Below, piece after piece: positions 14,186 through 62,927 of a stretch of DNA of 64,000 nt. The position numbers were made by a program, and so were the translations under genes. Origin of the DNA: Torpedo marmorata (lineage: Eukaryota); the NCBI GenBank assembly GCA_977017645.1, contig OZ360229.1:103850001-103914000 (forward strand), in the 5' to 3' direction. Numbering within the stretch: position 1 is the first letter of the stretch; every line of letters begins with the position of its first letter. The notes under the pieces are model-generated. The model saw only the letters and a list, made by a program, of their open reading frames with translations. It ran no database searches and was not told the DNA's origin.

Positions 14186-14438
14186 TGTGGTAAACCACTG
14201 TGTTTGTATTTGTGGTATGTACAGGTATTACAGGCCGGACTGATGTCTACTCCCTCCCCTCCCTTGGGTGTCCAGGTAATCCCTCCCCTTTCCTCACCTG
14301 AATAAAGGCCACTGTATCTCGGCCACCCCCTCCAGTCCGGATCTGATCGAGTAGGAAGCACGGCTTCATTCTTAGTCAATAAAAGCCTATGATTCACTTG
14401 CTCTCACAGTCTTCGAGTGATTATTGATAGGCCTATCA
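14186..14438 (+). repeat. 5' LTR of Gypsy B
   Basis: TGTGG...TATCA; TATA-like aataaagg at 14301 and AATAAA at 14378. Confidence 0.96.
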
Positions 14439-14461
14439 ATTTTATTGACTAAGTACTTCTG

Positions 14462-17400
14462 ATGGAAGGAGCACTACGGCCGGCTATCCTCGACCTCGAT
14501 CACCTAGCCCACGATGCCGGTAACGTCTTCGAACACTGGCTGCGATGTCTAGAATCGTTTATGGACACCATCGAAGCCGTAAGTGAAGCGCAACGATTGA
14601 AAGTCCTCATCTCCAGGGTGAGCTCTCGAGTGTACGTTACGATAAGAGACTGTGAAACCTACACGGGGGCTATGGATGCCCTGAGAGGAATCTACCTGTC
14701 GCCTGTCAACGGGGTCTACGCGCGATACCGGCTCTACTCCCGAATGCAGCGAGCAGGGGAATCGACCGTGGAATATGTCAGGGCCATACAGTCACTAGCA
14801 CGGGCGTGCAACTGTAAAGCCCTGACTGCTGAGGAACATTTGCGAGTGGTGGAGCGAGATGCGTTCATCATGGGGCTCAGGTCGGTATATGTGCGCCAGA
14901 GACTGCTAGAGCACGCCGACCTGGACTTTCGGGGGGCCGTAGCGATGGTCCGCACGTTGGAGACCGCGCAGCGGAACTCCGATGCCATGCAAGCTCGCGA
15001 CCCCCAGCCCGCAACGTGGTCAGCCCCATCTCCCAGCCCTGCGAACGAGATGACCGCCGCTGCCGCCATCCGTGCCGACCCGACCGCTACCGCGATCCTC
15101 ACCGCCGCTGCAGCCAGCCGCGAGCCCGAGAAGTGTTACTTCTGCGGGCTTGAGAAGCACCCGCGGAAGCGCTGCCCGGCCCGCGACGCAACTTGTTCCG
15201 GATGCGGCAGGAAAGGCCACTACGTGAAGGCCTGCCGCTCCAAGTCGCGCCCGGGTCTGAGCAGCGCCGCGTGCGAGCTGCGGGGGCAGCCATCTTACCT
15301 GAGGAGGCTTCCGGAGTCAGCCTCGTGCGAGCTGCGGGGGCAGCCATCTTACCTGCGGGAGCTTCCGGAATTGGCCTCATGCGAGCCGCGGGGGTGGCCA
15401 TCTTTGATGCTGGCACTTCCGGCGCCACCCGCGTCGGTACTTCCGGCCATACTACCGCCGCCATCTTACGGCAGCAGCAGCAGCGACACGTGCGAGCCAC
15501 GGGAGCGGCCATCTTTGTCGGCAGTAGAAGAAGATGAAGAATACATCGCAACTCTTGCCTCAGTCACCCTCGACCAGAACATCCCTCACCAGTTGTCGAG
15601 ATCCATGATGGACATTCTGGTGGAGGGACACAAAACCACCTGCCTCTTCGATACGGGCAGTACGGAGAGCTTCATCCACCCGGACACTGTCCAGCGCTGT
15701 GGCCTCACTACCATACCGGTAAGCCAGAGGGTGGCCATGGCGTCTGGGTCACACACAACAGACATCCGGGGGACTTGTGTGGCTGATATTGTTGTACAGG
15801 GGACTAAGTATAAACATTTTTCTTTATTTATAATGAATCGTTTGTGTGCACCCGTATTGTTGGGACTTGATTTTCAGAGCCACTTGCGCAGTGTTACTAT
15901 GCGGTACGATGGTCCCCACCCTGCGATCACTGTAGTCAACCACCAGTTCCATAATAATGAGCCCCAGACTACCTGTGGCCTCTCCACTCTTAAGATCTCG
16001 CCTCCGTCGTTATTCGCCAACCTGACCCCTGACTGTAAGCCTGTTGCAACCAAGAGCAGGCGATACAGTTCGGAGGACAGGGCGTTTATCAAGACGGAGG
16101 TACAGAGGTTGCTACAAGAGGGGATTATTGAAAGGAGCAATAGTCCCTGGAGGGCCCAGGTGGTTGTGGTAAAAGGGGCCAAGAGTAGGATGGTGGTGGA
16201 CTACAGTCAGACGATTAACCGGTTCACCCTGTTGGACGCATACCCGCTACCAAGAATTGCGGATATGGTTAATCAGATCGCTCAGTATAAGGTCTTTTCT
16301 ACGATTGACCTGAAGTCCGCGTACCATCAGCTCCCTATCCGTCGGGAGGACCGCCAGTACACTGCGTTCGAGGCTGACGGGAAACTGTTCCACTTCCTGC
16401 GGGTCCCGTTCGGGGTGACTAATGGTGTTTCTGTGTTCCAGCGGGAGATGAATAACATGGTAGAGGTATATAAACTTAAAGCCACCTTCCCGTATCTGGA
16501 CGATATCACCATCTGTGGGCTGGATCGCCAGGATCACGACACCAATCTCCGGAAGTTCCTGCAGGCGGCTAAAGCACTAAACCTAACATACAATAAAGAT
16601 AAATGTGTGTTCGGTACCACGCGCCTCGCTATTTTGGGGTACGTGGTAGAGAACGGGGTGATTGGGCCAGACCCCGATCGCATGCGCCCCCTACTGGAAC
16701 TTCCACTACCCTCCACCCCCAAAGCACTCAAGCGATGCCTCGGGTTCTTTTCATATTATGCACAATGGGTACCGAATTATGCAGATAAGGCCCGACCCCT
16801 GGTGAAATCCACCGTATTTCCCCTTGACTCGGAGGCACGTAAGGCTTTTGACCTTATAAAAGGGGACATTGCGCGAGCAACAATGCACGCGGTGGATGAG
16901 GAGATACCTTTCCAGGTAGAGAGTGACGCGTCGGACTTCGCGCTGGCTGCTACCCTCAACCAAGCGGGAAGGCCGGTGGCGTTTTTCTCGCGCACCCTTC
17001 AAGGCCCCGAAATTCGGCACTCCGCGGTAGAGAAAGAAGCCCAGGCCATCGTGGAAGCAATCAGGCACTGGAGGCACTATCTCGCCGGCAAGCATTTTAC
17101 CCTGCTGACCGACCAACGCTCGGTGGCATTTATGTTCAGCAACCAACAGCGGGGTAAGATCAAAAACGACAAGATCATGAGGTGGAGAATAGAACTCTCC
17201 ACCTATAACTACGACATCCTCTACCGGCCCGGGAAGCTCAATGAGCCCTCAGACGCTCTATCCCGGGGATCATGCGCCAGCGCGCAGATCGACCGATTAC
17301 ACGCCCTACAAGACCTCCTCTGTCACCCAGGAGTTACCAGGCTTTTTCACTTTGTGAAGGCACAGAACCTGCCATACTCCCTGGAGGAAGTCAGGACTTT

Positions 17401-18410
17401 GACCAGAGACTGTCAGGTTTGCGCAGAGTGCAAACCTCAGTTCTACCGCCCGGACAGGGCACAGCTGATCAAAGCCACGCGCCCCTTTGAACGTCTTAGT
17501 ATTGACTTCAAGGGGCCCCTTCCCTCCACGAACCGCAACGTGTACTTCCTAAACGTTGTTGACGAGTACTCGCGGTTCCCCTTTGCCATCCCCTGCCCCG
17601 ACACTTCAGCTACCTCAACCATAAAAGCTCTCCACCAGGTATTCGCGCTGTTTGGTTTCCCAAACTACATACATAGCGACCGGGGAGCAGCTTTTATGAG
17701 TGAGGAGCTGCGCAGGTACCTGCAGGACCGAGGCATCGCCACCAGCAGGACAACAGCATACAACCCCCGAGGAAATGGACAGGTGGAAAGGGAGAACGCT
17801 ACGGTGTGGAAGGCCGCGCTCCTAGCCCTTAAGTCAAAGGGCTGGCCGGTCTCCCGCTGGCAGGATGTTCTCCCCGAAGCCCTCCACTCTATCCCTACTA
17901 TGCACTTCCACCAACGCAACTCCTCATGAACGATTTTTTTCCTTCCCCAGGAAGTCGACCACCGGGACCTCCCTACCTGCCTGGCTTATGTCCCCGGGAC
18001 CAGTGCTGCTCCGCAACCACCTTCGGAGCAGCAAATATGAACCGACGGTTCAGAGGGTGCAGTTGGCGCACGCCAACCCCCAATATGCGTACGTGGTCTT
18101 CCCTGATGGACGAGAGGACACAGTCTCCATCCGAGACCTGGCGCCTGATGGGGCGCCAGAGGAGCATTCCGACGGGCAAGTCCACGTACTGCAAAACACA
18201 CCGCCACCCCTTCCTAACGCCCCACCCGATGTGTTAGACCCCGCCCCCTCAACGGGACCGCAAGCGTTCCGAGAGGCCAGGCAGGAGGCGACGGCACAGA
18301 CGAACCTACCACCTCCCCCATCACTAATATCTTCCCCAGCACCACAGCCCGACCCGACACTACGCAGGTCACAGCGGAAAATTCGGCCGCCGGATCGCCT
18401 GGACCTGTGA
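14462..18410 (+). CDS. gag-pol: Gypsy B Gag-Pol polyprotein; single ORF broken by one frameshift near 17890 in integrase
   Basis: The 1155-aa ORF has two CCHC-type knuckles (CYFC..H..C, CSGC..GH..C), protease LFDTGS, RT YLDD, RNase H SDAS and integrase IDFKG/HSDRG/VER. It continues in ORF 17865-18410 to PPDRLDL. Confidence 0.93.
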
Positions 18411-18498
18411 AAAGGAGGGTCTATATGTATATATATGTATTGTGTGATTAGAGTGGTCACGTCACCCCGCTGGACTCTTTCTAAAAAGGAGGGGTGAA

Positions 18499-18751
18499 TG
18501 TGGTAAACCACTGTGTTTGTATTTGTGGTATGTACAGGTATCACAGGCCGGACTGATGTCTACACCCTCCCCTCCCTTGGGTGTCCAGGTAATCCCTCCC
18601 CTTTCCTCACCTGAATAAAGGCCACTGTATCTCGGCCACCCCCTCCAGTCCGGATCTGATCGAGTAGGAAGCACGGCTTCATTCTTAGTCAATAAAAGCC
18701 TATGATTCACTTGCTCTCACAGTCTTCGAGTGATTATTGATAGGCCTATCA
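18499..18751 (+). repeat. 3' LTR of Gypsy B
   Basis: Direct repeat of 14186-14438. Confidence 0.96.
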
Positions 18752-20957: not shown

Positions 20958-22950
20958 CTCAATCATCTGTCGAGACTATGAAAAGATATTGAAATATTCC
21001 ATGTCTGAACTTTATCTCTTAAAATTGGACAACGTATTTCCGAGCCAAGATTAGAGGTCAGAGAAAGCTTCAGATTGCATCCAACTGCACCATAAGTAAT
21101 TTGAAGTGTTTTATATATTCCAAGCCACATCAATGAATCTCCTTCACTTTGAACACAAAAAAAATCATGAAGAAATATTTAAAAATAGTATTAATATGCT
21201 GACACTGGTTAAATACAAGTCAGAATATCAACCCAGATACAAATTAGTTGTATGTGGTTAATCCAAGCTGTTAGGTCAACTAATTAAATTGCTAGTGAAT
21301 AGCAGAATGTTATCATCAGCAGAATTAATTCTCTCCAACAAAACTGTGTTTCAGACCTCATGAACAAGGACGAATACCATGTTGGTATGTATGCTTATAT
21401 AATACAGGCCTTTGTTGATGGGTGGGCCAGGTGTCTTTCATTGTGAAGTCTAATTACTGGAATTCTTTGACTGCTAATGTTTATCTGTCCAGGGCACTTG
21501 CTGACTGAAAAAAACAAGTAACAACATCTGCAGATGTTACTGGGGCCAAGATCCTGTGTAAAACAGGCAGAGAATCTCAATGACGGTTACTAATGGTTAA
21601 AAAGAGGAAAAGGAGCAACACCTTTGACAAATTATGCCAACAGCAACCATACCCTAGTGGCAACAAGAGACTACTGAACACTGCAAAATGTTTGAACAAG
21701 GGCTTTTAAAATGAACAACAAACCAACTAACTCTTAATAGCTTATATTTTTATTTTCACTGCACCCCATGCATTCTTGCTCCACCTACTGAACACTGCAA
21801 AAGAACAAAATCCCTGGGTAACACAGGTCAAAAAGCATGTGCAGGAGAAACTAGTTATAATGGCCCACAAAATATATCCTATAAAGATTTCTTTAACCCT
21901 TCGATTACTGAAGCCAAAGTGGACAGCAATTTTGGATTTGAAGTCTGAATCACGGTGACTATTTATTGAGCATTTTTATACCACAATTACATCTGAATTT
22001 TTGCACATTATTATTAATCGCTATCAGTTTCAGATCAAACGCACTGCAATTAGTAAAAAACTGGAGCCTTCCATTCAGCAGTGAGCGCCTGTCACCATTT
22101 ACCCCAAAGAGGCCAGGCCACAAAGATTAACCAGCCTCTGAAGCATCAAGTTCCATGTACCCAATGCTGGCACATCCATTATAGGAGATGTGTGAAGTTC
22201 AATAATAGTGAAATCATCAAGAATGCCAATCAGATATGAACGTTTTCACAGAGCATAAGATAAGAAGTAAAAATCACTCCATTTTATAATCATAGTATAT
22301 TTTAAAAAATCAAGAATACGAGCCAGGATTTAGCTGGATTTTTCAGGACTAGAGAGGTTATTCAGTGGTATTTAGGGCTTCATACATTCTTAAACCTCAT
22401 TCATTGTGGCTTAAAGATTTTCAAAATAATAATTGAAAGTTACCATTAAAATTCATAACAATGCTTCTGAATCGACCAAATCCACAAAAGTTCGAACAAC
22501 ACACCAAACTTCATTTGCAGACAAGCCACGTGTCTGATTGCTACACTGTCCTGTTTAGTTATGCACGTATGTAGACACCATCTCTGTCATTTCACAATTT
22601 TACAATTGTAAATGACATGCCAATTTATGATTAATGATGAGAGCTCACTTAACTTCATGCAAACCTGACTATTGTAACAGATTAATTACCGAATATTTTG
22701 GCGAATAAGTCGACTCGCGGAAAAGTTGACCACCCTTTTTCAGCCTAATTTTAATGGTTTTATTGTATATCCGGTGTATAAGTCGACCCCCAAAAATTGC
22801 GATGCCTGAGATGCTGAGCGTTGACCGGCGTATAAGTCGACCCCCAAAAATCGCAATGATTGCGCTACTGGGCGTTGACCGGCGTATAGGTCGACCCACA
22901 ACGATCGTGCTGATTTAGCTGCTGGGCGTTGGCTGGAGGTGATTGTTATC

Positions 22951-24223
22951 ATGGAGGCTCAATTGAAACGACGAAAGTATGAGGCGAGTTTTAAATTAAA
23001 AGTGATAGAAATGGGCAAGAAAACCAACAACTGTGTTGCTGCAAGAAAATTTGATATATATGAGAAGTTGGTAAGAGATTGGAGGAAGAAAGAAGATATT
23101 TTAAGAAAAATACCAAAAAGGCAATGTTCGATGAGAAGAGGAATCACTCGTTGGCCAGAGTTGGAAAATCATGTTGCAGCATGGGTACGTGAACAGAGGC
23201 AAGATTGCTACATAGTCACCCAAAATAAAAGAACATTTGCACTGAAGTGGGCAAAGTCGCACCCAGAACTCAGTAATGATTTTGAAGCTACAGTAGGCTG
23301 GTGCAACCGTTTTATGAACAGGAAAAATCTGGTATTACGACAAAAAACAAAAATTGCTCAGAAACTACCAAAAGATCTTGATCATAAAGTTGTAAGTTTT
23401 CACCAGTTTATTTTACGTAACCGGCAGAAGCACCAGTTTGCATTGGCAAATATTGGAAACATGGACGAAACCCTCATGAATTTTGACATGATAGGCAATA
23501 GAACAGTGGAATGGAAAGGTGTGAAAACTGTGCAAACCAGGAGTACAGGCCATGAAAGGACCAGGTTTACTGTGCATGGCCGACGGGACAAAGTTAAGAC
23601 CCATGGTAATCTTCAAACGTAAATTTAAACCTAAAATAAAATTCCCTGCGGGTATTTTTGTACATTTTCATGAAAAAGGATGGATGGATGAAAATGGTGT
23701 AAGACTATGGATAGACAATGTGTGGAACAGGCGGCCAGGTGGTTTACGCAAGGAACGGAGTTTGCTGGTCTGGGATATGTTTCGTAGCCACTTAACTGAG
23801 AAGACTAAAAGTAGATTAGCACAACATAATACTTACATGGCGGTTATCCCGGGTGGTTTGACGTCTATATTGCAACCTCTCGATGTCTGCTTGAACAAGC
23901 CATTCAAAGACGATGTGCGTGAAGAGTGGAATACATGGATGTCGAGTGCATCGCTTGATGTGCTGTGTGACTTTGTGCTCAAGGCATGGGACAAAGTGAA
24001 AGTAGAGACTGTAATAAAATCGTTTAAAAAGTGCGGTATCTCTTGTGCAATTGATGGTACGGAAGATGATTTATTGTGGGACACTGACAACGAAGCTGAA
24101 GACGTCTCATCAGATACAGACTGGGACCCGTACGATGACTGTTTAAACAGTGAGACCCCGGATGTGCTTGCCGAGATCTTTGCCTCAGACGATGATAGCG
24201 AAAGTGATTTTGAAGGGTTCTAA
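22951..24223 (+). pseudogene. pogo transposase (Brinker-type DBD, CENP-B HTH, DD35D), frameshift near 23570
   Basis: RRKYEASFKLKVI..KLVRDWRK, WPELE..W, GWCNRFMNR, NMDET, VWD-35aa-LD(VCLNKPFK) and an acidic tail. Confidence 0.9.
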
Positions 24224-25402: not shown

Positions 25403-26079
25403 TGTAAGAGCCATAGGCTCACTACCTACCTTCTGTTTTGGCCACGGGCGCCAGCGGTGTCCCGGGGTCCGTAGGCCTCTTCCGTAGGCCGCACCAGCGC
25501 GAGCGCCGCCACCGCTTACGGAGCTGGAGCATGCGTGGTTAGCCAGCGGCGGTGGCTTCGGCTGGGGCCGGCGTATCCATCAGTGCGCATGCGCACTGAT
25601 GGACTGGGTCGACGCGTGCGCGGTTGTCTCGGCCCCGGTGGCGAGCGGTTGGAGCCGGGGCCAGCGCGTGTAGCCACGGAGCATGCGCGGGTGGGATCTT
25701 CTTTTAAAGAGGTTCCCCCGCGCGAGTCGGCAGTTGAAAACCTGAGGAGGGTGAGTTAGATGTCGACAATCTCTGTCGACCGTTTAATACTTTTGGAAAT
25801 CGTTTTATACTTTTGGAAATCGTTTAATACTTTTGGAAATCGTTTAATACTTTTGGAACACTTTTTATAACCTTTTTACATTGTTTTATATCCTTTTACA
25901 TTATTTTACATCATTTCAAGAAATGTTTATATTAAAGTCTGAAGATTACTGCAAGTCTAATGTAAATAAAGGTTTTTTGAACATTTTGGACTTTGTTGGT
26001 AAATGAATGAAAACGCGTCGCAGACAAACATCTAACTTAGCCTCCAAGCGACTATTTTTTATTGGACGAAGTCGCTACA
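25403..26079 (+). repeat. 5' LTR of the BEL/Pao element
   Basis: CpG-rich 5' half, TATA-like ttttaaa at 25702, and four copies of a 20-bp unit cgtttaatacttttggaaat at 25781-25859. Confidence 0.95.
25576..25603. promoter_or_regulatory. Perfect 28-bp palindrome centred on an NRF1 consensus in the LTR U3
   Basis: tccatcagTGCGCATGCGCActgatgga; the 3' LTR copy has one mismatch. Confidence 0.5.
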
Positions 26080-26486
26080 TTAAGTCGACAGAGAATTTGT
26101 TGAACTAAGTCGACAGAGATTCGGTCACTGAAACGGAAAATAGGATAGGAAGGAGAAGCCAGGAGGGTCAGTGAGGTTTCCAGATACATAAGGACCACAC
26201 TTAGCCTCCAGGTGACCAACGTTGGATCGAAGTCACCGCAATCTACGTAGTCAATAGAGAGCTGGCTGTTTGGAACAGAAAATAGAAGGAAAGAAGATAA
26301 AAAAACTCGTTTGTGGATTGCAGCACATTACAGTCAGTTGAAGTGGTTGGCATAAGTCTGTGGACTCCTTCTGTGTATCTTTAGTAAGTAAGAACACAGA
26401 TTGGAATTGCTGCCGCTGGTCCATTGGGGACTGTTGTTTGGCTGGTATTGTGTATGCTTGAAGGAAAGAGGAACTAGACGAGTAAA

Positions 26487-29400
26487 ATGGCCGCAGCAGC
26501 CACTGATACAGCAGCTACTGATATATCAGCAGCTGGCGCAGCAACCGCTGATGTTGCTGTTGAGGACCGACGTATTGAAGACATGAAGGTTACGGATATT
26601 AAAGAAGAATTGAAGCGACTGAAAAAGGACATAAGAGGAAATAAAAGGGTTCTTATCGAAAGATTGAAGCAGGCAAAGGATGAAGAGGCAGCTTCATTAA
26701 ATGAACAAGAAGATAACTTGGAAATGGCTGAAATTGTGTCAACAAATGATGAAGGAATTAAAGTGGTTGAAGATTCAAAGGATATACAATTTGAATTGAA
26801 TAAAGAGGTAAGTATGAAGACAGCATATGAACTGCAGGACGAAATACAAGCAAGTGACAGTGTCTCAATTGCTGAAAGCAGGAGAAGCAAAAGAAGTTCT
26901 GGTTCGAGCTCCAGAGTTTCTCGCACTTCAAATTATACATCGTCACGTACAAATGTTGATGTTAAATTGGCCGCTCTTCTTGCACAACAAAAAATGCTTA
27001 AGGATAAATATATTTTGGAAGAAGAGGAGGAGCAGCTAAGACAAAAGGAGAAGCAGCTAATGGAGCAGCTAAGACAAGAGAAGGAGCAACTAAGGCAGAG
27101 AAAAGAACAGCAGGAGCTAGAAGCAAACATTGCTATTTCCAAGGCAGAAAAGAAAGCAATAGAAGGCTCGATGGTATCTGGTGCTAGCAGTAAATTATCT
27201 AAATTGTCTGATAATAAAAGGTCATATTTAAAAAAGGAGTCACAGGAAAAGAAACCAACCAAAAGGATAGATATTTTAGAACCAAGGATACAAAACTTAC
27301 ATATACAAGGACAAACCTTTCAAGGGCATATTGGTATCGAGTCACATGTACCAATAGTAACATCTGAAGACAAGGCTGCGGCTTGGGTTCGGTCGAACGA
27401 AGCAGCTTCTTTGTTATATGAGACAAGAATCAGAAATATGGAAGAAACTACACCAGTGAGGTTTCCAGATACATTGCATGCAACAAGAGACAGTGAACAG
27501 AGCAATGTATTGACATCCAAGGAAAGACAAAATGAAATTGCTGCATCATTGTTTCAGTTACAGTCTCTCTCTTCTTTACCCAAAAAGGAGATACAAACCT
27601 TTGATGGTGATCCACTTCAATATCAATCATTTATGAGATCTTTCAAACGCAATATTGAATATAAATGTCAAGGTCGTGATGAATGTCTTTATTATTTGGA
27701 AATGTTTACAAAGGGACATCCAAAAGAACTGGTAAAGAGTTGTAAACAAATGTCTTCAGAAAGAGGATTAGACAAAGCTAAGGCTTTACTGGAACAATAT
27801 TTTGGCAACAAGCATCGAATTGCTTTAGCTTATATGGATAAAGCTCTTAATTGGACATCAATAAAACAAAATGATGTAAAGGCTCTGCAAGAATATACTC
27901 TGTTTTTAAGAGGATGTTGTAATGCTATGGAAGAAATCGATAATATTCGTGAGCTTGAAGTGCATAGTAATATGCGAATCATCTTAGAAAAATTATCTTA
28001 CAAGTTATGGGATAGATGGAGAAATTTGGCTTGTGATTTACAAGTAGATTACGGTCGAAAGAGTACCTTAAAGGATTTGGTAAATTTTCTTGAACGACGG
28101 GTGTACGTTGAAACAGATCCACTATATGGAAATGCCAGAGATAATTCAATGGGCAAAGATGTAAAGAAGTCTAACACACAGTCTAGTCCGAAAGTAAAAA
28201 GGAGTACCTTTGCTACTAATGTGCAAGTTATAAGTAAAGAAAAGGACAAAGTAAATAAGGAAAAGGAAAGTTTGCCTGATGAAAAGAGTTGTTTGTTCTG
28301 TAAAGGTGGACATGCTTTGGAAATGTGTTTACGATTGGAAAAGAAGGAACATAAGGAAAAGATCGCTTTCTTAAAGGAAAATGGAATATGTTTTAGCTGT
28401 TTGTGTAAAGGACACATCAGTAAAAACTGCGAGAAGCGAATTAATTGTAACATATGCAATTTGAAACATCCTAGAATTTTGCATATCCATAACAGAAACA
28501 AGGAATTGGGAAAAGAGCAAACAGAAACAAAGGAAACAACAGAAAATAATGTTATAACCTCGGTTCAGACAAGTGGTCTTACTGGGGCCGGAATGAATAA
28601 CTGCAAACTTTCAATAGTGCCTGTACAAGTCAAGGCCAAGAAAGGGGATGTAATAGTTAAAACATATGCATTTTTAGATCCAGTCAGCACTGCTTCCTTT
28701 TGCACGGAAGGACTAATGATTAAACTTAATATTCAAGGAAAAAGATCAAAAATTATGTTAAGAACAATGGGACAAGAAAAGGTTGTTGAAACTAACATTG
28801 TTTCAGGCTTAGAGGTTGCTGGATTGGATGACAAAAAAATTTGTGATCTTCTAAGTGTATATACTCAGAAGACTATGCCTGTGAATGAAGGAAATATTCC
28901 TCATCAAAGGGATATCCATCATTTAGCTTATCTGTGGAAGGTTTATTTACCTGAGATTAATTCTGAGATAGAAATGCTGATTGGTTCAGATGTGCCAAAG
29001 GTTTTGGAACCGAAAGAAGTAATAGAGAGTAAAAGGAATGGACCTTACGCTATTAGAACCAAGTTTGGTTGGACAATCAATGGACCACTGGAAAGAAATA
29101 ATGATATTGCTCAGGAACAGTTGGCGATAAATATTAATAGAATTTCGGTTGAGAAAGTTGAAGAGTTAAGCGAAGAGCAAAAAACTGTGAATAAGAAAAT
29201 CACTTTTGAAGAAAAGAAAACAGATCAATGTGAAAATAAATCAATGGTATTTAAAACAACATTGAAGGAATTAATTTCGTCAGAAATGGATGAAAGTGAA
29301 GTATTAGAAAATGTTGCAAATAATACTATTGATCATTCATGTGTAATTGAATCCAATACAGGAATAAAACAAGTGACTGAAAACAAATCTGAATGTAGAT

Positions 29401-30203
29401 TTTGTAATTCAGAGAATACAACAGACAAAGCTAACGAAGAAAGATTACAACGTGATGTAAAACTGGAAAACACAGAAAACTGTACTGATGGAATAAAGAA
29501 TATTGCGAATGATAATTTAATGCAATTGAATTCAGAGAACAAAATGTTGAAAGGGGAATTGGAAATATTAGATAATCAAGAAAACAGTAAACAGAAAGAT
29601 TTAATTGTAAGTAAAACTCGCAAAGTCAGAAAGCGGAAGAAAAGAATAACTGCTGAAGAAATGAATACAGTTATCGAGGAAAGAGATTTAGCATTATCAA
29701 AATGTAAAAGGTTGGAGGAAGAGATTAATGTTTTGAAAGAGAACAAGTTATTGGTTAATAACACAAAACAATTAACAATGCAGAAAGAATGTGATATTGC
29801 ATTGCAGAAATATAACAAACAAGACGAAGAAATTAAAAAATTTCAAGTTTGCCGCAACAGGATTGACAATGGAAATATCAATGTAGCACATGATATTTTG
29901 ACTTCAGATCAAAGTATTAATTTCTCGAAAAGAACTGAGACCGAATTGAAAGTTGCAAAATTGGATTTAGAATTGCAGGAAAGAGCCATAGAAACCAGAG
30001 TGGTTAAACAGACCTGTTTAAAATCGAAAGGATCAGATAAATATTCAAATTCTAGTTCTAAGAGTTTAAATTCTTCACATGAGAAGTGGAATACTGAAAA
30101 AAGAAATAAAGTGAAACGACATGTTGAAGAAGTGCCTTGTGTTAAATTCAAAAGAAAAACTGTATCTATTTTATCTGAGGAAGATTTGAAGTTTACTGGT
30201 TAA
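26487..30203 (+). CDS. 1238-aa chimeric polyprotein: SAP domain, BEL/Pao Gag (three Zn knuckles), aspartic protease-like domain, coiled-coil tail with MIPOL1-like segments
   Basis: The ORF is uninterrupted. SAP-like IEDMKVTDIKEELKR...GNKRVLIERLKQA; Gag LPKKEIQTFDGDPLQY..F; knuckles CLFC..H..C, CFSC..GH..C and CNIC..KH..LH; protease TYAFLDPVS..LIGSD..RTKFGWTINGP; tail RITAEEMNTVIEERDLALSKCKRLEEE. Confidence 0.85.
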   Translation: MAAAATDTAATDISAAGAATADVAVEDRRIEDMKVTDIKEELKRLKKDIRGNKRVLIERLKQAKDEEAASLNEQEDNLEMAEIVSTNDEGIKVVEDSKDIQFELNKEVSMKTAYELQDEIQASDSVSIAESRRSKRSSGSSSRVSRTSNYTSSRTNVDVKLAALLAQQKMLKDKYILEEEEEQLRQKEKQLMEQLRQEKEQLRQRKEQQELEANIAISKAEKKAIEGSMVSGASSKLSKLSDNKRSYLKKESQEKKPTKRIDILEPRIQNLHIQGQTFQGHIGIESHVPIVTSEDKAAAWVRSNEAASLLYETRIRNMEETTPVRFPDTLHATRDSEQSNVLTSKERQNEIAASLFQLQSLSSLPKKEIQTFDGDPLQYQSFMRSFKRNIEYKCQGRDECLYYLEMFTKGHPKELVKSCKQMSSERGLDKAKALLEQYFGNKHRIALAYMDKALNWTSIKQNDVKALQEYTLFLRGCCNAMEEIDNIRELEVHSNMRIILEKLSYKLWDRWRNLACDLQVDYGRKSTLKDLVNFLERRVYVETDPLYGNARDNSMGKDVKKSNTQSSPKVKRSTFATNVQVISKEKDKVNKEKESLPDEKSCLFCKGGHALEMCLRLEKKEHKEKIAFLKENGICFSCLCKGHISKNCEKRINCNICNLKHPRILHIHNRNKELGKEQTETKETTENNVITSVQTSGLTGAGMNNCKLSIVPVQVKAKKGDVIVKTYAFLDPVSTASFCTEGLMIKLNIQGKRSKIMLRTMGQEKVVETNIVSGLEVAGLDDKKICDLLSVYTQKTMPVNEGNIPHQRDIHHLAYLWKVYLPEINSEIEMLIGSDVPKVLEPKEVIESKRNGPYAIRTKFGWTINGPLERNNDIAQEQLAININRISVEKVEELSEEQKTVNKKITFEEKKTDQCENKSMVFKTTLKELISSEMDESEVLENVANNTIDHSCVIESNTGIKQVTENKSECRFCNSENTTDKANEERLQRDVKLENTENCTDGIKNIANDNLMQLNSENKMLKGELEILDNQENSKQKDLIVSKTRKVRKRKKRITAEEMNTVIEERDLALSKCKRLEEEINVLKENKLLVNNTKQLTMQKECDIALQKYNKQDEEIKKFQVCRNRIDNGNINVAHDILTSDQSINFSKRTETELKVAKLDLELQERAIETRVVKQTCLKSKGSDKYSNSSSKSLNSSHEKWNTEKRNKVKRHVEEVPCVKFKRKTVSILSEEDLKFTG

Positions 30204-30242
30204 CGTTTTAACTCGAAGATTATAGAGATAAAAGAACTTTGG

Positions 30243-30353
30243 AGAGACATTGTGATTATTATGGATAATTCGACTTCAAGAAACTCCTGGTTACTTGGAA
30301 AAATTATTGAGACTTTTCAAGACAAAGGAGGAACTTTGATAAATGTAAACTAA
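30243..30353 (+). pseudogene. Remnant of the BEL/Pao integrase C-terminal domain (DUF5641-like)
   Basis: Translates RDIVIIMDNSTSRNSWLLGKIIETFQDKGG, matching the GD.V......PR..W.LG.I...FPD..G pattern. Confidence 0.75.
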
Positions 30354-30546
30354 CTTTATTTGTTGTTGTATATTTCAGGTTACAGAGTTTTGTTCATCCA
30401 GAGTTATGGTAAACTCTGGTCTTGTGAAGAAAGAAGAAAGGATTTGTATATTTGTTCGAATGTTATATGGTTATTGTTATTATAATGTTATAGTTATGTA
30501 ATTATTATTAGAGATGTTACATCTCATTATAATAATTAGGGGCCGG

Positions 30547-31233
30547 TGTAAGAGCCATAGGCTCACTACCTACCTTCTGTTTTGGCCACGGGCGCCAGCG
30601 GTGTCCCGGGGTCCGTAGGCCTCTTCCGTAGGCCGCACCAGCGCGAGCGCCGCCACCGCTTACGGAGCTGGAGTGTGGCGGCGCATGCGTGGTTAGCCAG
30701 CGGCGGCGGCTTCGGCTGGGGCCGGCGTATCCATCAGTGTGCATGCGCACTGATGGACTGGGTCATTGCGTGCGCGGTTGTCTCGGCCCCGGCGGCGAGC
30801 GGTTGGAGCCGGGGCCAGCGCGTGTAGCCACGGAGCATGCGCGGGTGGGATCTTCTTTTAAAGAGGTTCCCCCGCGCGAGTCGGCAGTTGAAAACCTGAG
30901 GAGGGTGAGTTAGATGTCGACAATCTCTGTCGACCGTTTAATACTTTTGGAAATCGTTTTATACTTTTGGAAATCGTTTAATACTTTTGGAAATCGTTTA
31001 ATACTTTTGGAACACTTTTTATAACCTTTTTACATTGTTTTATATCCTTTTACATTATTTTACATCATTTCAAGAAATGTTTATATTAAAGTCTGAAGAT
31101 TACTGCAAGTCTAATGTAAATAAAGGTTTTTTGAACATTTTGGACTTTGTTGGTAAATGAATGAAAACGCGTCGCAGACAAACATCTAACTTAGCCTCCA
31201 AGCGACTATTTTTTATTGGACGAAGTCGCTACA
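30547..31233 (+). repeat. 3' LTR of the BEL/Pao element
   Basis: Direct repeat of 25403-26079. Confidence 0.95.
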
Positions 31234-34076
31234 GCGCCTCCATACCAGGCAGTGATGCAACCAGCCAGAATGCTCTCCACGGTACACCTGTAGATGTTTA
31301 CAAGAGTCTTCGGTGACATACCGAATCTTCTCAGACACCTCACAAAGTATAGCCGCTGATGAGCCTTCTTTGTGATTTCATCAACGAGGAGGCTCCAGGA
31401 CAGATCCTCGGAGATGTTGACACCCAGGAATTTGAAGTTCTTGACCCTCTCCACTACTGAGCCCTCGATGAGGACTGGGTCGTGTTCCCCTGACTTCCTC
31501 CTGAAGTCCACAATCATCTCCTTGGTTTTGCTGACATTGAGCGCAAGGTTGTTGTCGTTACACTATTCAACGAGCTGATCTATCTCCCTCCTATATGCTT
31601 CCTCATTGCCGTTTGTGATTCTGCCGACAACTGTGGTGCCATCGGCAAACTTGTAGATGGCATTGGAATTATGCCTGGCCACACAGTCATGGGTGTATAA
31701 CGAGTAGAGCAGTGGGCTAAGCACGCATCCTAGGGGTGCGCCTGTGTTGATAATCAGTGAGGAGGAGACGTTGTTTCCAATTCATACTGACTGTGGTCTT
31801 CCGATGAGAAAGTCAAGGATCCAGTTGCAGAGGGGGGTACAGAGGCCTAAAGGTTGTAGCTTCTTGACCAGCACTGAGGGAATAATGGTATTGAAGTTGA
31901 TGACGAGCAGCCGTATGTATGAGTTGCTGTTTTCGAGGTGATCCAGAGCTGAGTGGAGAGCCAGTGATATTGCATCTTCTGTGGAGCGATTGTGACGATA
32001 GGCGAATTGCAGTGGGTCCATACCTTTGCTTAGGTACATGTTAATTCTGGCCATGACCAGCCTCTCAAAGCATTTCATCACAGTAGAAGTTAGTGCAGCT
32101 GGACGGTAGTCGTTGAGGCAGCTCACACTACTCGTCTTTGGTACCGGGATGATTGATACCCTTTAGAAGCAGGTGGGAACCTCTGACTGCTGCATATAAT
32201 ATAACCTCTAATTTCACAAAAAAAATATATAGACAGAGGTTTTGACATAGCTAACCATTCCAAGTATGATAAATGAGCATTAATGATAAAAATATGACTG
32301 AGCCATGAAAGAAGTGAAGATTTAGGCAGAGTCAGAGGAAAGAGCAGTGGAGGCAGGAATGCTTGCAGAGAATTCTACTGTTTAATGTCTGGGGTCACTG
32401 AGAGTAGAACAATTATGGTCGAAGATAGAGTGAAAGGAACACAAGGATCCTGGTGCTGGAGGATGAAGCAGGTTTACATCTGAAGGTGATCAGCTTCTCC
32501 TAAGATCCTCTAAAATACAAGAACTTCCATACCAAAAGATTCTATCATACGATCATGAAATCAGGAGCAAAAGAGACCATTCAACTCATTAGATTTTACC
32601 CAGATCTTCCAATGCACAACCCATCCACATCACTCACTCTGCCATTCCCCTATATCACTATAATTTCTTTCTTATTCATTATAGCGCTTCACACAATGAA
32701 GGTGAACAGTATAATATGACAGAACTGCTGTCAGTTGTGTAAAAGATTTTTGAGTAAGAAATGAGTGTCGGAATGATAAAAGAATTCATCAACAAGACCT
32801 TTAGGACAGTCATCGTCAAGGATGGATGCAAGCCTTGTTTGTTTAGCTATTAAAATCAGCTTGCTCAATTTACATTTTTCAATGAACAATGAAATATTCA
32901 TTTGTAAAAAACTATAAACATTATCAATTGAAATAAGAATGACGGTTTTAGGGATTTGATGTGCGCAAAAGAAAATTTTGAGCAATCTAGTTCAAAAATA
33001 TTTTGTTTATTGGCTGGAACTGATGGCAGCGGTTTGCTAACTGCTGATATAAACTGATGTTGTAAGCATTGCGAAATGATCACCAAATAAACAGCCTACA
33101 TCTAAAAACAAAAAGAAAATAATGCCTTTCCTCTCCATTGGCTCTACACAGTTTGTAACCACAGGAATTTCCTGAATGTGTTTGGAGACTGAAAATCTGA
33201 AATTGACTCTGTGGAGAATGGGAAGCAGTGAAGCACACATCATTGTATTTCCCTGTATATTACAAAAAGTTAAAGACATCAGCTGAAGCTGACCAACCTC
33301 CTGTGCCACAACAATCAAAATGGCCAAACAAAAGCAATAAATAACTCTTTTGGAAAACATTTAAAATGAATTGTAATTAAACTGAACATCGGGTCTCAAA
33401 CATCCCTGCAAGAGGTTCTGTAAACAAAACTGGATACAAGTACACAACATTTACAATCATCTACAATATATTACATAAACAATAGAACTTCGATTGTAAC
33501 TATCTGCCAAAGTCATACGAATAATATCAAACAATAGACCAATTTCTGCCTTTACCAATTCCAAGATTGAATTTTAAAAATGAAGTCTTTCAACATTGGA
33601 ATTAGCCCTGCAATGAAACAGTTTATTTTCAGTTCAAATCAGTCTGTAATCATATTGCCTGTTCCAACTCAACACTAATTGTCACTAAATCATCAATGAT
33701 CTATCTCTTCACGAGATCAAGGATGGCTGGCATATCAAATGGAATAATCTCACATAGGTTAGTCAAGGCATAATGTTAAGGAAAAAATTTGGAAGGTGTT
33801 TGATATTGGTTGAATGAAGAGGGCTCACAGAATTATATTTACCGTATTTGACGGCATATAAGACCCCCCTTTTTTCCCCAAAATATCACCTCAAAAACCA
33901 TCCCGGGTCTTATATGCGAAGGTGACATTTTGGTGCCGCCATTTTGGTGCCGCCATTTTGGGCACTGAGTGTAGTCCAGGAAGCGGGCCCGCAGCTTCGC
34001 GGACCATCTTCCCTTGGGTGGCCCGTACTTTCCGGAGTCGCTGCTGCCGCCGCTCACTTCCCCCAGAAAGAAGGCT

Positions 34077-46280: not shown

Positions 46281-49200
46281 TGTGGTAAACCACTATGTAT
46301 GGGTTGTGGGCTGGGTGATAGGTCTGGACATGCTCCTGCTGACTGTCCCGGTGGCTCCACCCACAGACCCCCTGAATAAAGGCCATTGTTCCACTGCTCC
46401 TCCCCCAGTCCGGGACAGATCACCAGCACGAATGTAGCTCCATTCTTTTGCCAATAAAAGCCTTTCAGTTCTTGTGTAACTTCTAGTCTTTTGGAGTTAT
46501 TGATGGGCTCATCAATTTTATTGGCAAAATTGTAAACATGGAGAATGTCTTGAGACCAGACAAACTGGACCTCGACCCACAAACACCGGAAGCTGGCAAT
46601 GCCTTCGAACTCTGGCTAGCCTGTTTTGAATCGTTCCTGGAGGAGATCAAAGTGCAAGAAGACGCCGCAAAATGCAAGGTTCTCCTCTCTAGTGTAAGCC
46701 CACGAGTCTATTCTATGATCCGAGATCTGCAGACTTATGAGGACGTGATGAATACCTTTAAAAGACAGTATTTACGGCCTGTGAATACAGTATATGCAAG
46801 AAACAGGCTAGCGACGCGGCAGCAGCAGCCCGGGGAGCCGAGCGTGGAGTTCGTACGGGCCCTACAAACACTCGTGCGGGCCTATGACTGCCGGGGACTG
46901 ACGGCCGAACAACACGCAGAGCTCCTAGTGAGAGTCGCTTTTGTTACAGGGACCAGGTCAGTGTATGTGCGCCAGCGGCTGCTGGAACAAGCTTACCTCA
47001 CCTTCCATTCCGCGATCGAGCTGGCCGATACGCTGGAGGCCGCGCTACAGAACTTGGATGCTATCCAGGCGCGCGATCTCCAGCAGGCTCCGTGGATGCC
47101 GCCGACCTCCCACTATGCCAGTGAATCAGCCACTGCAGCCATCAGAGGTGAACCCGAGAAATGCTATTTCTGCAGGCTTGAGAAGCACCCCCGGAAACAT
47201 TTCCCGGCCCGAGAAGCGACCTGCTCCAGCTGCGGGAAGAAAGGCCACTTCACTAAGGTCTGTAGATCAAAACCGCGAGCGGGATCGAGCAGCGCTGCGT
47301 GCGAGGCTTGGGGGCGGCCATCTTGTGTGTCGTCACTTCCATCTCCGCCATCTTACCTACCCGCGGCCGCGGCAAACACGTGCGAAGTATGGGGGCGGCC
47401 ATCTTGTGTTTCGTCACTTCCGTCGCCACCATCTTACCTACCCGCCGCCAAAACGTGCGAGTCATGGGAGCGGCCATTTTGTTCCACGCTATTGAGCCGA
47501 CACAGGGTGCCGCTATCCCGGGACAGCAAGCACTCCATCACGCCGTCGGATCAAGACAGCGACCCAACGTTGGCGTCAGTTACACTCGACCAGAGTGCAC
47601 CCTACCAACTCGCGAGGTCGATGATGGACATCCTGGTCGAGGGACACAGGACAAACTGCCTGTTCGACACAGGCAGCACAGAGAGCTTCATCCACCCTGA
47701 CACGGTACAGCGATGCGGCCTCATGACACAGCCGGTAAGCCAGAGGGTTGCCATGGCTTCCGGGTCGCACACAACAAACATCCGGGGGGGGTTGTGTAGC
47801 GACGATAGTGGTACTGGACACAGAATACCGGGACTTCACGCTATTGGTCATGCCCCGACTGTGCGCACCTGTACTACTGGGCCTCGACTTCCAGAGTCAC
47901 CTCCAAAGTGTGACGATGGAGTATGATGGGCCACTCCCACCGATTACTGTCGGTAATCACCAATTTCTTAAAAACGGCAGAAATATTTGGTCACACCACG
48001 CTACTTGTGGTCTATCCACCCTCAAGATCCCGCCCCCAACGCTATTCGCCAACTTGACCCCTGATTGTAAATCTGTGGCAACCAAAAGCAGGAGATATAG
48101 CGCAGGGGACAGGGCATTCATTAAGTCAGAGGTGCAGCGGTTACTTGGGGAAGGGATCATCGAGGCGAGCACAAGTCCCTGGAGGGCCCAGGTGGTTGTC
48201 GTCAAGAACTGGGAGAAAAACAGGATGATGGTAGATTATAGTCAGACCGTCAATAGGTTCACACAGCTTGACGCGTACCCTCTACCACGCATTGCAGATA
48301 TGGTGAACCAGATAGCTCAGTATAAGCTTTTCTCCACCATAGACCTCAAATCTGCCTACCACCAGCTCCCCATTCGCCGGGAGGACCGCCCCTACACCGC
48401 CTTCGAGGCGGACGGCAGACTCTATCATTTCCTGCGCGTTCCCTTCGGAGTCACAAATGGGGTATCCGTCTTCCAGAGGGAGATGGACAGGATGGTGGAC
48501 CAATGCAAATTAAAGGCCACTTTTCCATACTTAGATAACATCACCATCTGCGGTCACGACCGCCAGGACCACGATAACTATCTTCGGAAGTTCCTCCAGG
48601 CAACCAAAGCACTTAACCTCACCTATAACAAGGATAAGTGCATGTTCGGAACCACCCGACTCGCTATCCTGGGGTGTGTTGTGGAGAACGGGGTCATCGG
48701 CCCCGACCCCGACCGCATGCGCCCCCTGTTGGAACTACCGCTTCCCCACACCCTCAGAGCCCTCAAAAGGTGGTTGGGCTTCTTTTCTTATTATGCTCAA
48801 TGGGTCCCTAATTATGCGGACAAGGCACGCCCCCTAGTCAAGTCCACCACTTTTCCCCTTGCAACAGAGGCACGTGAGGCTTTCAGCCTCATAAAAGGGG
48901 ACATTGCCAGAGCAACAATGCACGCGGTGGACGAGTCCACTCCTTTTCAAGTAGAGAGTGACGAGTCCGACTTCGCACTGGCTGCTACCCTCAACCAGGC
49001 GGGAAGACTGGTGGCGTTCTTCTCCCGTACCCTTCAAGGCCCAGAAATTCGGCACTCGGCGGTGGAGAAAGAGGCCCAAGCCATAGTGGAAGCTATCAGG
49101 CACTGGAGGCACTATCTCGCTGGCAAAAGGTTTACCCTGCTGACTGACCAAGGCTCAGTCGCATTCATGTTCAGCAACCAGCAGCGGGGTAAAATCAAAA

Positions 49201-50751
49201 ATGATAAAATCCTGAGGTGGAGAATCGAACTCTCCACCTACAACTACAATATAATGTACCGGCCCGGGAAGCTCAATGAGCCCTCCGATGCTCTATCCCG
49301 GGGGATGTGCGCTAGCGCACAGATCGACCGGTTATATGCCCTCCACTGTGACCTCTGCCACCCCGGAGTCACCCGGCTTTTTCACTTTGTGAAAGCCCGT
49401 AATTTACCGTACTCCCTGGAAGAGGTCAGGACAATGACCAGCAGCTGCCAAATCTGCGCGGAGTGCAAACCGCACTTCTACCGTCCTGACAAGGCACAGT
49501 TGATAAAAGCAACCTGCCCATTTGAGCGACTAAGCGTCGAATTTAAGGGCCCCCTTCCCTCCACCGACCGCAATGTGTTCTTCCTCAACGTTATTGATGA
49601 GTACTCGCGGTTCCCTTTCGCCATTCCCTGCCCCGATACCACTACCACCTCAGTCATAAAGGCCCTCCGCAAACTCTTCACATTGTTTGGATACCCCTGC
49701 TATATCCATAGCGACCGAGGGTCCTCGTTTATGAGTGACGAGCTGCGACAATACCTGCTGGCCAAGGGTATCGCGACTAGCAGGACCACGAGCTATAACC
49801 CACGGGGTAATGTACAAGTGGAGAGGGAGAATGCCACGGTCTGGAAAGCCACACTCTTAGCCCTCAGGTCTAAGGGATAACAGTCTCCCGCTGGCAAGAA
49901 GTCCTTCCCGAGGCACTCCACTACATCCGATCCCTGCTATGTACGTCCACCAATGCTACACCTCATGAGAGACTCTTTTCCTTCCCCAGGAAGTCGACCA
50001 CCGGGACTACCCTACCAGCATGGCTGACGTTTTTCAAGGCCAGTGCTGCTCCGGAAACATGTCAGGAGCAACAAATACGCCCCGATGGTCGAGAGGGTCC
50101 AATTAGTACACGCGAACCCCCAGTACGCCTACGTGGTTTTTCGTGATGGGCGGGAAGACACAGTCTCCATCCGGGACCTGGCGCCCGCAGGAGCACTGGG
50201 ACCCGCCACTGCCCTCGAACACTCCGTAGTTACTGTTACCCCCTTACCTACCATTAAGGACACATAAGAGGCACCAACCAATTCAAACATGACACCAAAC
50301 GTACTGGCATATTCATCCGAGGTTTCGCGATCGCCAGACGTGCCGGTACCCCAGATCAGGCAGGAGGCAGCACCGCCACCTGCCCCATCACCACAAGTAC
50401 TGCGCCGATCACAGCAGCGGACTCGACCGCCTGATCGACTCGATTTGTAATTTTAATTCTTTGTAAATATTGTTATACCCTTCACCCCGCTGGACTCTTT
50501 TAAAAAGGAGGGGTGAATGTGGTAAACCACTATGTATGGGTTGTGGGCTGGGTGATAGGTCTGGACATGCCCCTGCTGACTGTCCCGGTGGCTCCTCCCA
50601 CAGACCCCCTGAATAAAGGCCATTGTGCCACTGCTCCTCCCCCAGTCCGGGACAGATCACCAGCACGAATGTAGCTCCATTCTTTTGTCAATAAAAGCCT
50701 TTCAGTTCTTGTGTAACTTCTAGTCTTTTGGAGTTATTGATGGGCTCATCA
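46281..50751 (+). mobile_element. Gypsy LTR retrotransposon C (same family as A), full length
   Basis: The 234-bp LTRs 46281-46514 and 50518-50751 have 4 mismatches. The TSD is CCTAT (46276-46280 and 50752-50756), and a PPT precedes 50518. Confidence 0.97.
46538..50450 (+). pseudogene. gag-pol: Gypsy C gag-pol with frameshifts (G8 run at 47784-47791; near 49880; near 50030) and a late stop
   Basis: ORFs 46538-47926, 47748-49880 and 50043-50267 carry LFDTGS, YLDN, HPG..CQIC, IHSDRG and PPDRLDL. Confidence 0.92.
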
Positions 50752-50932
50752 CCTATATTCCTTTTAAACTCTATGTGTTCACTTAAATATTTATTCTTCT
50801 ACTATTTAAGATCTAAGCAAAGAGTGAATTGAAAATGTGTTTTCACAGTGGGAATAGCGTCCAATAGTCTGGAAAATCTGCTAGGTTGGGACTAGCAAAT
50901 TTCCAACAATGATTAGTTGTTTTCGTAAAATC

Positions 50933-62700: not shown

Positions 62701-62927
62701 AAGACGAGCACTCAAAGGCACAAGGACAGCTTTTTCCCCGCTGCCATCAGATTCCTGAATAATCAATGAACCAAAAACACTGCCTTACTTTTCGTGCACT
62801 ATTATTTATATTTTTTTTTATAGTAATGTCGTAAGATGGTTATAATATGAATGTGTTCACTATGATACTGCAGCAAAACACCGAATTTCATGACTTGTTC
62901 ATGACAATAAATTCTGATTCTGATTCT
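59780..62927 (+). mobile_element. Near full-length Rex1/Babar-type LINE
   Basis: 5' aaaatggcgcc start, IKYSRSELLKI leader, APE and RT domains, and tail aataaattctgattctgattct. Confidence 0.9.
60238..62769 (+). pseudogene. Rex1/Babar APE endonuclease-reverse transcriptase ORF, disrupted
   Basis: LANVQSLENK, AVYIPP, TLDHCY, KSDH; [29 protein letters not shown]. Stop at 60313 and frameshifts. Confidence 0.92.

Follow-up and report, generated by a model that had tools for sequence, protein, structure and literature searches.

A BEL/Pao element without its enzymes

The window, i.e., the whole 64-kb stretch of DNA that was analysed, contains an insertion of 5.83 kb (25403–31234), bounded by long terminal repeats (LTRs) and carrying one open reading frame (ORF) of 1238 codons, in which a SAP domain, a BEL/Pao Gag with its protease region, and pieces of the host gene MIPOL1 follow each other (Table 1). 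The LTRs begin with TG, end with CA, and are flanked by a short target-site duplication, as is the case for BEL/Pao elements. Alignment of the two LTRs gives 671 matches, 6 mismatches, and 11 gap columns (about 99% alike). A Pfam scan of the ORF detected no reverse transcriptase (RT), RNase H, or integrase, and the homology to BEL polyproteins ends at residue 898; the enzymes of an autonomous BEL/Pao element are absent. What the window contains is a young copy of a non-autonomous element. An in-frame stop lies 9 nt upstream of the ATG at 26487, and the reading frame was confirmed to open there with the Ala-rich leader quoted in the preliminary description. No TGG-type primer-binding site was found directly after the 5′ LTR (26080–26125), where a short motif occurs twice instead. 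Neither a second copy of the element nor another SAP domain is present in the 64-kb window.

Table 1. Features of the insertion, with positions in the window.
Feature	Position	Strand	Remarks
5′ LTR	25403–26079	+	TG...CA ends; GC-rich; 5-bp target-site duplication just upstream
5′ untranslated region	26080–26486	+	Between 5′ LTR and ORF
Chimeric ORF	26487–30203	+	SAP leader, BEL Gag, protease region, MIPOL1 mosaic
Ala/Thr/Asp-rich leader	26487–26564	+	aa 1–26; 15-nt internal periodicity
SAP domain	26574–26675	+	aa 30–63; Pfam PF02037
Acidic linker	26676–26804	+	aa 64–106; meets BEL Gag near aa 107 (5′ junction)
BEL/Pao Gag and protease region	26805–29180	+	aa 107–898; coiled coil, DUF1759, Cys-His boxes, protease motif
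DUF1759	27600–28022	+	E 2e-5; 24.8 bits, just below the cut-off of 25.4
Three Cys-His boxes	about 28290–28484	+	Within aa 107–898
Protease motif	near 28674	+	One conserved position differs from the relatives
MIPOL1-derived coiled coil, two adjoining pieces	29598–29834	+	aa 1038–1116; 44/60 and 14/20 identical; E 2e-21, Narcine MIPOL1
Third MIPOL1 piece	29937–30002	+	aa 1151–1172; 19/22 identical to Narcine MIPOL1 348–369
Integrase C-terminal (DUF5641) remnant, untranslated	30246–30347	+	59% over 34 aa to P0287 2008–2041; E 7e-10
Polypurine-tract-like stretch	30531–30546	+	Directly before 3′ LTR
3′ LTR	30547–31234	+	Target-site duplication just downstream, same 5 bp as the 5′ flank

The GC-rich LTR looks like a CpG-island promoter. 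A 28-bp palindrome within it (25576–25603 and 30730–30757) holds what we take to be an NRF1-like core. An exact repeat of 21 nt is shared by the 5′ untranslated region (26169–26189) and a spacer in Gag (27454–27474), and it is possibly the footprint of a template switch. Elsewhere in the window, two related Gypsy-type LTR elements (14186–18751 and 46281–50759) have a gag region with repeated GC-rich units (families D16 and D20), each with a YY1-like core. Ordinary repeats at 22879–24223, 1620–2624, and 60429–62769 consist of pogo/Tc5-type transposase in two frames and of LINE fragments (endonuclease; RT with ALKBH8_N).

The BEL Gag body and its two ends

Residues 107–898 are 51% identical to a full-length relative of 2066 residues (P0287), with homology starting at residue 107, and identity to BEL relatives reaches 59% over residues 340–900. 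The arrangement of this part, a Gag with DUF1759 and three Cys-His boxes followed by a protease, is that of BEL/Pao, and it is homologous to Peptidase_A17-bearing polyproteins. With the fish-type BEL/Pao (Belpaoviridae) polyproteins, such as P0287 and P0002, the element has in common the Gag coiled coil, DUF1759, the three Cys-His boxes, the protease region, the LTRs, and the integrase C-terminal tail, which is a remnant here. It differs from them in having a SAP cassette in the place of the N-terminal domain and a MIPOL1 mosaic in the place of RT, RNase H, and integrase. Since the active-site motif of the protease departs at one conserved position, processing may be lost in the window copy.

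The relatives open with a conserved N-terminal domain of about 130 residues, located ahead of an SDSVS-type motif. In the preliminary description, the SAP domain was placed before what was held to be the usual start of BEL Gag, marked by this motif. This has to be corrected: in the relatives, the motif is internal (median position 162, range 136–201; the pattern matched 19 of 47 full-length relatives) and stands behind the N-terminal domain, which the query is missing. A profile of the native domain, matching all 47 relatives used in its building and 45 of the 73 left out of it, did not detect the domain in the query, and the 5′ untranslated region scored below 0 bits in three frames. The comparison with relatives indicates that the SAP cassette replaces the native N-terminal domain of Gag and was not added before it. 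With none of 125 relatives carrying one, the possibility that a SAP ordinarily belongs to this lineage of BEL was rejected. No SAP was found by precomputed Pfam annotation in 120 relatives (the best 120 of 388 matches), nor by a SAP profile in any of 125, where the highest score was 1.0 bit, and the claim that the domain is foreign to BEL Gag holds.

At the C-terminal end, the ORF continues into three pieces of MIPOL1, whose order is scrambled, as the third one maps to MIPOL1 348–369, upstream of the other two (452–545). Over 102 MIPOL1 residues, 77 are identical in Narcine, 73 in Pristis, 70 in Hypanus, 66 in Pristiophorus, and 52–57 in bony vertebrates. MIPOL1 Pfam families were found in all 120 matches listed (the best 120 of 190), with batoids at the top (best E 2e-21; Atlas 0.96), so the homology is both significant and consistent with lineage. 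This gradient, with the electric ray Narcine at its head, points to a batoid as the probable host. Vimentin was also considered as a match of the C-terminus and was rejected as a generic coiled coil (E 0.08). Scrambled pieces of the host gene MIPOL1 thus stand in the place of RT, RNase H, and integrase, in the reading frame of Gag. The presence of these pieces in the ORF means that the element demonstrably captures host mRNA, and the evidence for this capture is stronger than that for any donor of the SAP domain. In the alignment, the piece at about 29613–29645 is more basic than ray MIPOL1, and this stretch resembles a nuclear localisation signal. The nearest named BEL relatives (among P0002–P0121) are teleost-labelled, with 51–56% identity over residues 340–900, and the MIPOL1 fragment is ray-like; a transfer of the BEL element between fishes is possible.

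Repeated template switching is described as yielding chimeric LTR-flanked retrocopies with scrambled fragments (PMC5470649). It is proposed that both exchanges, that of the native N-terminal Gag domain for the SAP cassette and that of RT, RNase H, and integrase for MIPOL1, arose in the same way, by switching of the reverse transcriptase onto co-packaged RNAs, and we give this reading a probability of about 0.85. With the LTR-mediated chimeric retrocopies, as they are outlined in that source, the element shares out-of-order host gene fragments between two LTRs; the difference is that the fragments are here in frame with Gag and that the chimera has multiplied into a family present in several organisms.

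The SAP domain and its possible donors

A Pfam SAP scan places the domain at 26574–26675, exactly where the preliminary description had seen the fold, with 28.4 bits in the whole ORF and 32.1 bits in an isolated 88-residue piece (curated cut-off 23.9). A chance match was rejected, as a SAP profile made without the query gives it 49.7 bits, compared to at most 1.0 in 125 BEL proteins. The sequence has the two helices and the extended loop of a SAP domain, with the conserved Gly, Lys, Arg, and Leu positions. Three columns invariant in 59 other SAP domains are kept, while a further Leu column reads Ile, and the basic surface is preserved along with the core residues, although this conservation of the core partly follows from the mode of detection. 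AlphaFold, when given a 19-row alignment, which leans the model toward the SAP fold, predicts two helices at the SAP positions in a helix-loop-helix arrangement. The top fold matches of this model are the SAP domains of ERI1, hnRNPUL1, DEK, Tho1, and MKL1, none reaching E 0.001 with so small a model. AlphaFold without an alignment gives one long helix for the first 100 residues, which counts against the fold and was taken as a poor model. The SAP domain is genuine, and the element is a BEL/Pao member with a true SAP, not a protein of the SAFB family. The SAFB-family architecture consists of SAP, RRM, and an ER-rich repeat, as given in PMC10901741, and no RRM was detected in the Pfam scan of the ORF. 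With SAFB1, SAFB2, and SLTM, the Gag shares an N-terminal SAP after an Ala-rich start; it differs in having neither RRM nor ER-rich repeat and in its unaligned flanks.

The debatable issue is where the cassette came from. It was suggested earlier that it resembles the N-termini of SLTM and SAFB, including the leader, and the resemblance of the domain itself is real. SLTM gives the highest single identity (23/43, compared to 20/43 for the best SAP outside the SAFB family). A search of 1.84 billion proteins returned 34 matches, 18 of which are of SAFB/SLTM type by reading (5 are so named by their source), and the query has the SAFB/SLTM-typical residue in 8 of 15 columns, compared to at most 6 in 44 other SAP domains. 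In SAFB and SLTM, as in Gag, the domain is N-terminal. A capture of the 5′ part of an SAFB or SLTM mRNA of the host, followed by rapid divergence, is thus a serious candidate, to which we give somewhat less than an even chance. However, over the 34-residue core, SLTM (20/34) exceeds an MRTF-like SAP (19/34) by one residue, and a viral SAP (17/34) stands above SAFB (16/34). Codons 28 and 62 (Arg28 and Gln62) differ from the window in nearly all aligned copies, and two of the SAFB/SLTM identities are therefore peculiar to the window copy; when both residues are masked, the SAFB/SLTM profile scores the MRTF-like SAP higher than the query (49.9 and 47.8). The likeness of the leader, in turn, was not upheld: against four mammalian-type SLTM/SAFB leaders, it matches no better than composition shuffles (p 0.21–0.86), and among all 10 leaders tested, two reached p of about 0.04 and one 0.06, uncorrected, and none is significant once the 10 tests are allowed for. 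Homology of the leader to SLTM/SAFB was rejected, and none of 10 comparisons of the acidic linker with the conserved acidic tail of SAFB/SLTM was significant (p 0.16–0.83). The leader matches itself best at a lag of 15 nt, the top lag tested (38/66, or 0.58; other multiples of 3 give 0.32–0.53), and this periodicity is probably a local duplication.

Trees and divergence also weigh against an SAFB or SLTM donor. In both reduced trees, built from 25 rows (9 SAFB/SLTM, 15 other proteins with one SAP each, and the query) on 43 columns that resolve little, and from a panel without a chondrichthyan SAFB/SLTM paralogue or a transposon SAP, SAFB and SLTM form a starred clade (96/91–93) with the query outside it. 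Nesting of the query within SAFB or SLTM has a p-AU of 0.054–0.088 (43 columns), a borderline value by which it is disfavoured and yet not rejected; the sister position, which would still agree with such a donor, reaches 0.50, and pairing with the MRTF-like SAP 0.13, so that neither of these is rejected. In a 60-row tree, from which one non-SAP row had been removed beforehand, the query is unplaced. Divergence from the best match is greater for the SAP (23/43) than for the MIPOL1 pieces (77/102; Fisher p 0.011), though the SLTM SAP regions are alike at 32–39 of 43 positions among bony vertebrates. The earlier suggestion stands insofar as SLTM is the closest single SAP, and not as an identification of the donor. 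The same holds for the proposed second host capture: the domain is foreign to BEL, and a capture of MIPOL1 is found in the same ORF, but SAFB/SLTM is not its proven source.

The donor may instead have been a virus, some other mobile element, or a host gene for a different SAP protein (e.g., Zisupton-type, Penelope-like, iridovirus, or MRTF/hnRNPU-family). The position of the query outside the SAFB/SLTM clade and the unrejected pairing with the MRTF-like SAP speak for this. Unrelated SAP domains reach 47–56% core identity. Donors other than SAFB/SLTM stay possible, since SAP domains are reported in Zisupton and Chlamys Penelope-like elements (PMC8557442) and annotated in fish and amphibian iridoviruses. 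Candidates of this kind are, however, wanting: no transposon-borne SAP is among the 34 matches, no donor of this type was found, the vertebrate iridovirus SAPs are only 19–35% identical to the query, and viral contigs gave seven generic SAPs with a core identity of 13–17/34. A word-index search with residues 1–135 scored none of 1547 candidates, and an Atlas search with residues 1–115 gave no usable match. We regard such a donor as holding even or slightly better odds.

Related copies and the role of the SAP-Gag

Contigs from four sequencing runs, labelled as four organisms, cover the internal region in 30, 30, 28, and 30 of 30 bins, with depths that do not represent copy numbers. They are mostly 90–99% identical to the element, and the bin of the SAP is covered in all four. 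Among the contigs listed, none bridges SAP to Gag in another organism; from the even cover, and because none of the 24 loose ends listed falls at the junction, we infer that the two are linked there as well. Of the insertions and deletions in the best 12 of 37 rows, which are clustered, 11 fall in the untranslated regions, although these make up 17% of the stretch, and one, of 3 nt, falls in the ORF. This pattern suggests selection on the reading frame. Over the whole ORF, the synonymous share at polymorphic sites is 7/16 (best 40 of 543 difference rows), above neutral but not significantly so (p 0.11). A metagenome scan with the whole protein confirmed none of 386 stretches.

It is proposed that, after template switching had removed the native N-terminal domain and the enzymes, the element would make its own Gag and obtain Pol from an autonomous BEL helper. 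The N-terminal SAP, together with basic patches resembling nuclear localisation signals, is predicted to bind chromatin or AT-rich DNA, and possibly nascent RNA, since some SAP-bearing proteins, e.g., ERI1, were solved bound to RNA. Such binding would bring Gag to the element’s own transcripts, or particles to the chromosomes, and the outcome would be that the element is favoured over its helper. Chromatin tethering by the Gag SAP is plausible; a chromatin-binding signal is described for foamy virus Gag (PMC7828637), which is a functional analogy only, with no homology to the putative tether described here. For the combination of borrowed Pol with a putative SAP tether that favours the element, we see an even balance of chances. 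A more specific course of events is rather improbable. In it, a parasitic BEL family of rays would have acquired its SAP from SAFB/SLTM, the host’s own repressor of transposons, and its coiled coil from MIPOL1; selection would then have turned the diverging SAP into a chromatin tether or an anti-SAFB decoy, and the Pol-less element would have spread in several species at the expense of its helper.

The SAP could also be a passenger, a helical filler that preserves the reading frame and binds nothing. Its strong divergence from every known SAP would agree with this, as would one contig of run X1 that skips the domain (26516–26715, depth 48). The core residues and the basic surface are nevertheless kept, the domain is covered in every run, and SAP-less forms make up a tiny share in X1, which makes the passenger reading unlikely, if still deserving some weight. 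According to the preliminary description, the domain might also act as a decoy against a host repressor. Competition of the Gag SAP with host SAFB proteins would lift repression of the element’s A-rich RNA (the ORF is 40% A, compared to 29% in the window), and binding and repression of A-biased RNAs, those of L1 and of LTR elements, by SAFB proteins are described for human, mouse, and fly (PMC10901741). The repression described there acts on RNA, and the RNA-binding part of the family is the RRM. The decoy idea is weak because the SAP piece comes without the RRM and the ER-rich repeat of the SAFB family; moreover, the identity of the donor is unproven, and the SAP is only about half identical to SAFB/SLTM, so that we hold this idea to be very unlikely. 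Restriction by Gag-derived proteins is known, and a trans-dominant, Pol-less Gag might serve the host by poisoning the particles of autonomous BEL elements. An intact Gag, a missing Pol, and a protease motif that departs from the relatives in the window copy would agree with such a role, but the youth of the LTRs, the presence of a target-site duplication, and the large number of divergent copies fit a selfish family and not a single domesticated locus, and we consider such a role the most improbable of the explanations. The SAP as a putative tether of a selfish, helper-dependent element is the reading we prefer.

Host-fragment capture by LTR elements and SAP domains in other classes of transposons are already known. 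Plant TR-GAG elements are Gag-only, non-autonomous LTR elements that keep Gag, are without Pol, and need a helper; the element described here belongs to an animal BEL lineage and has foreign domains at both ends of Gag. In Zisupton, a DNA transposon, and in the Penelope-like Chlamys-1_pPol, SAP is likewise an accessory domain of a transposon protein, whereas here it is part of an LTR-element Gag, a distinction drawn from the descriptions given in PMC8557442 and not from sequence. No report of SAP on a BEL/Pao Gag was found in a literature search that was thin on subscription papers, Repbase-type records, and supplementary domain tables, nor, at the level of titles and listings, any of a retrotransposon with MIPOL1. 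No SAP-Gag is named in the available part of a survey of additional domains in plant LTR elements (PMC9289625).

The firm finding is a Gag that is chimeric twice over and has been amplified. Its spread as a family, with both ends rebuilt in one reading frame, shows that BEL Gag can lose its native N-terminal domain. The element is, moreover, a natural experiment on the question of whether a putative chromatin-binding module helps a non-autonomous element to compete for the enzymes of its helper.
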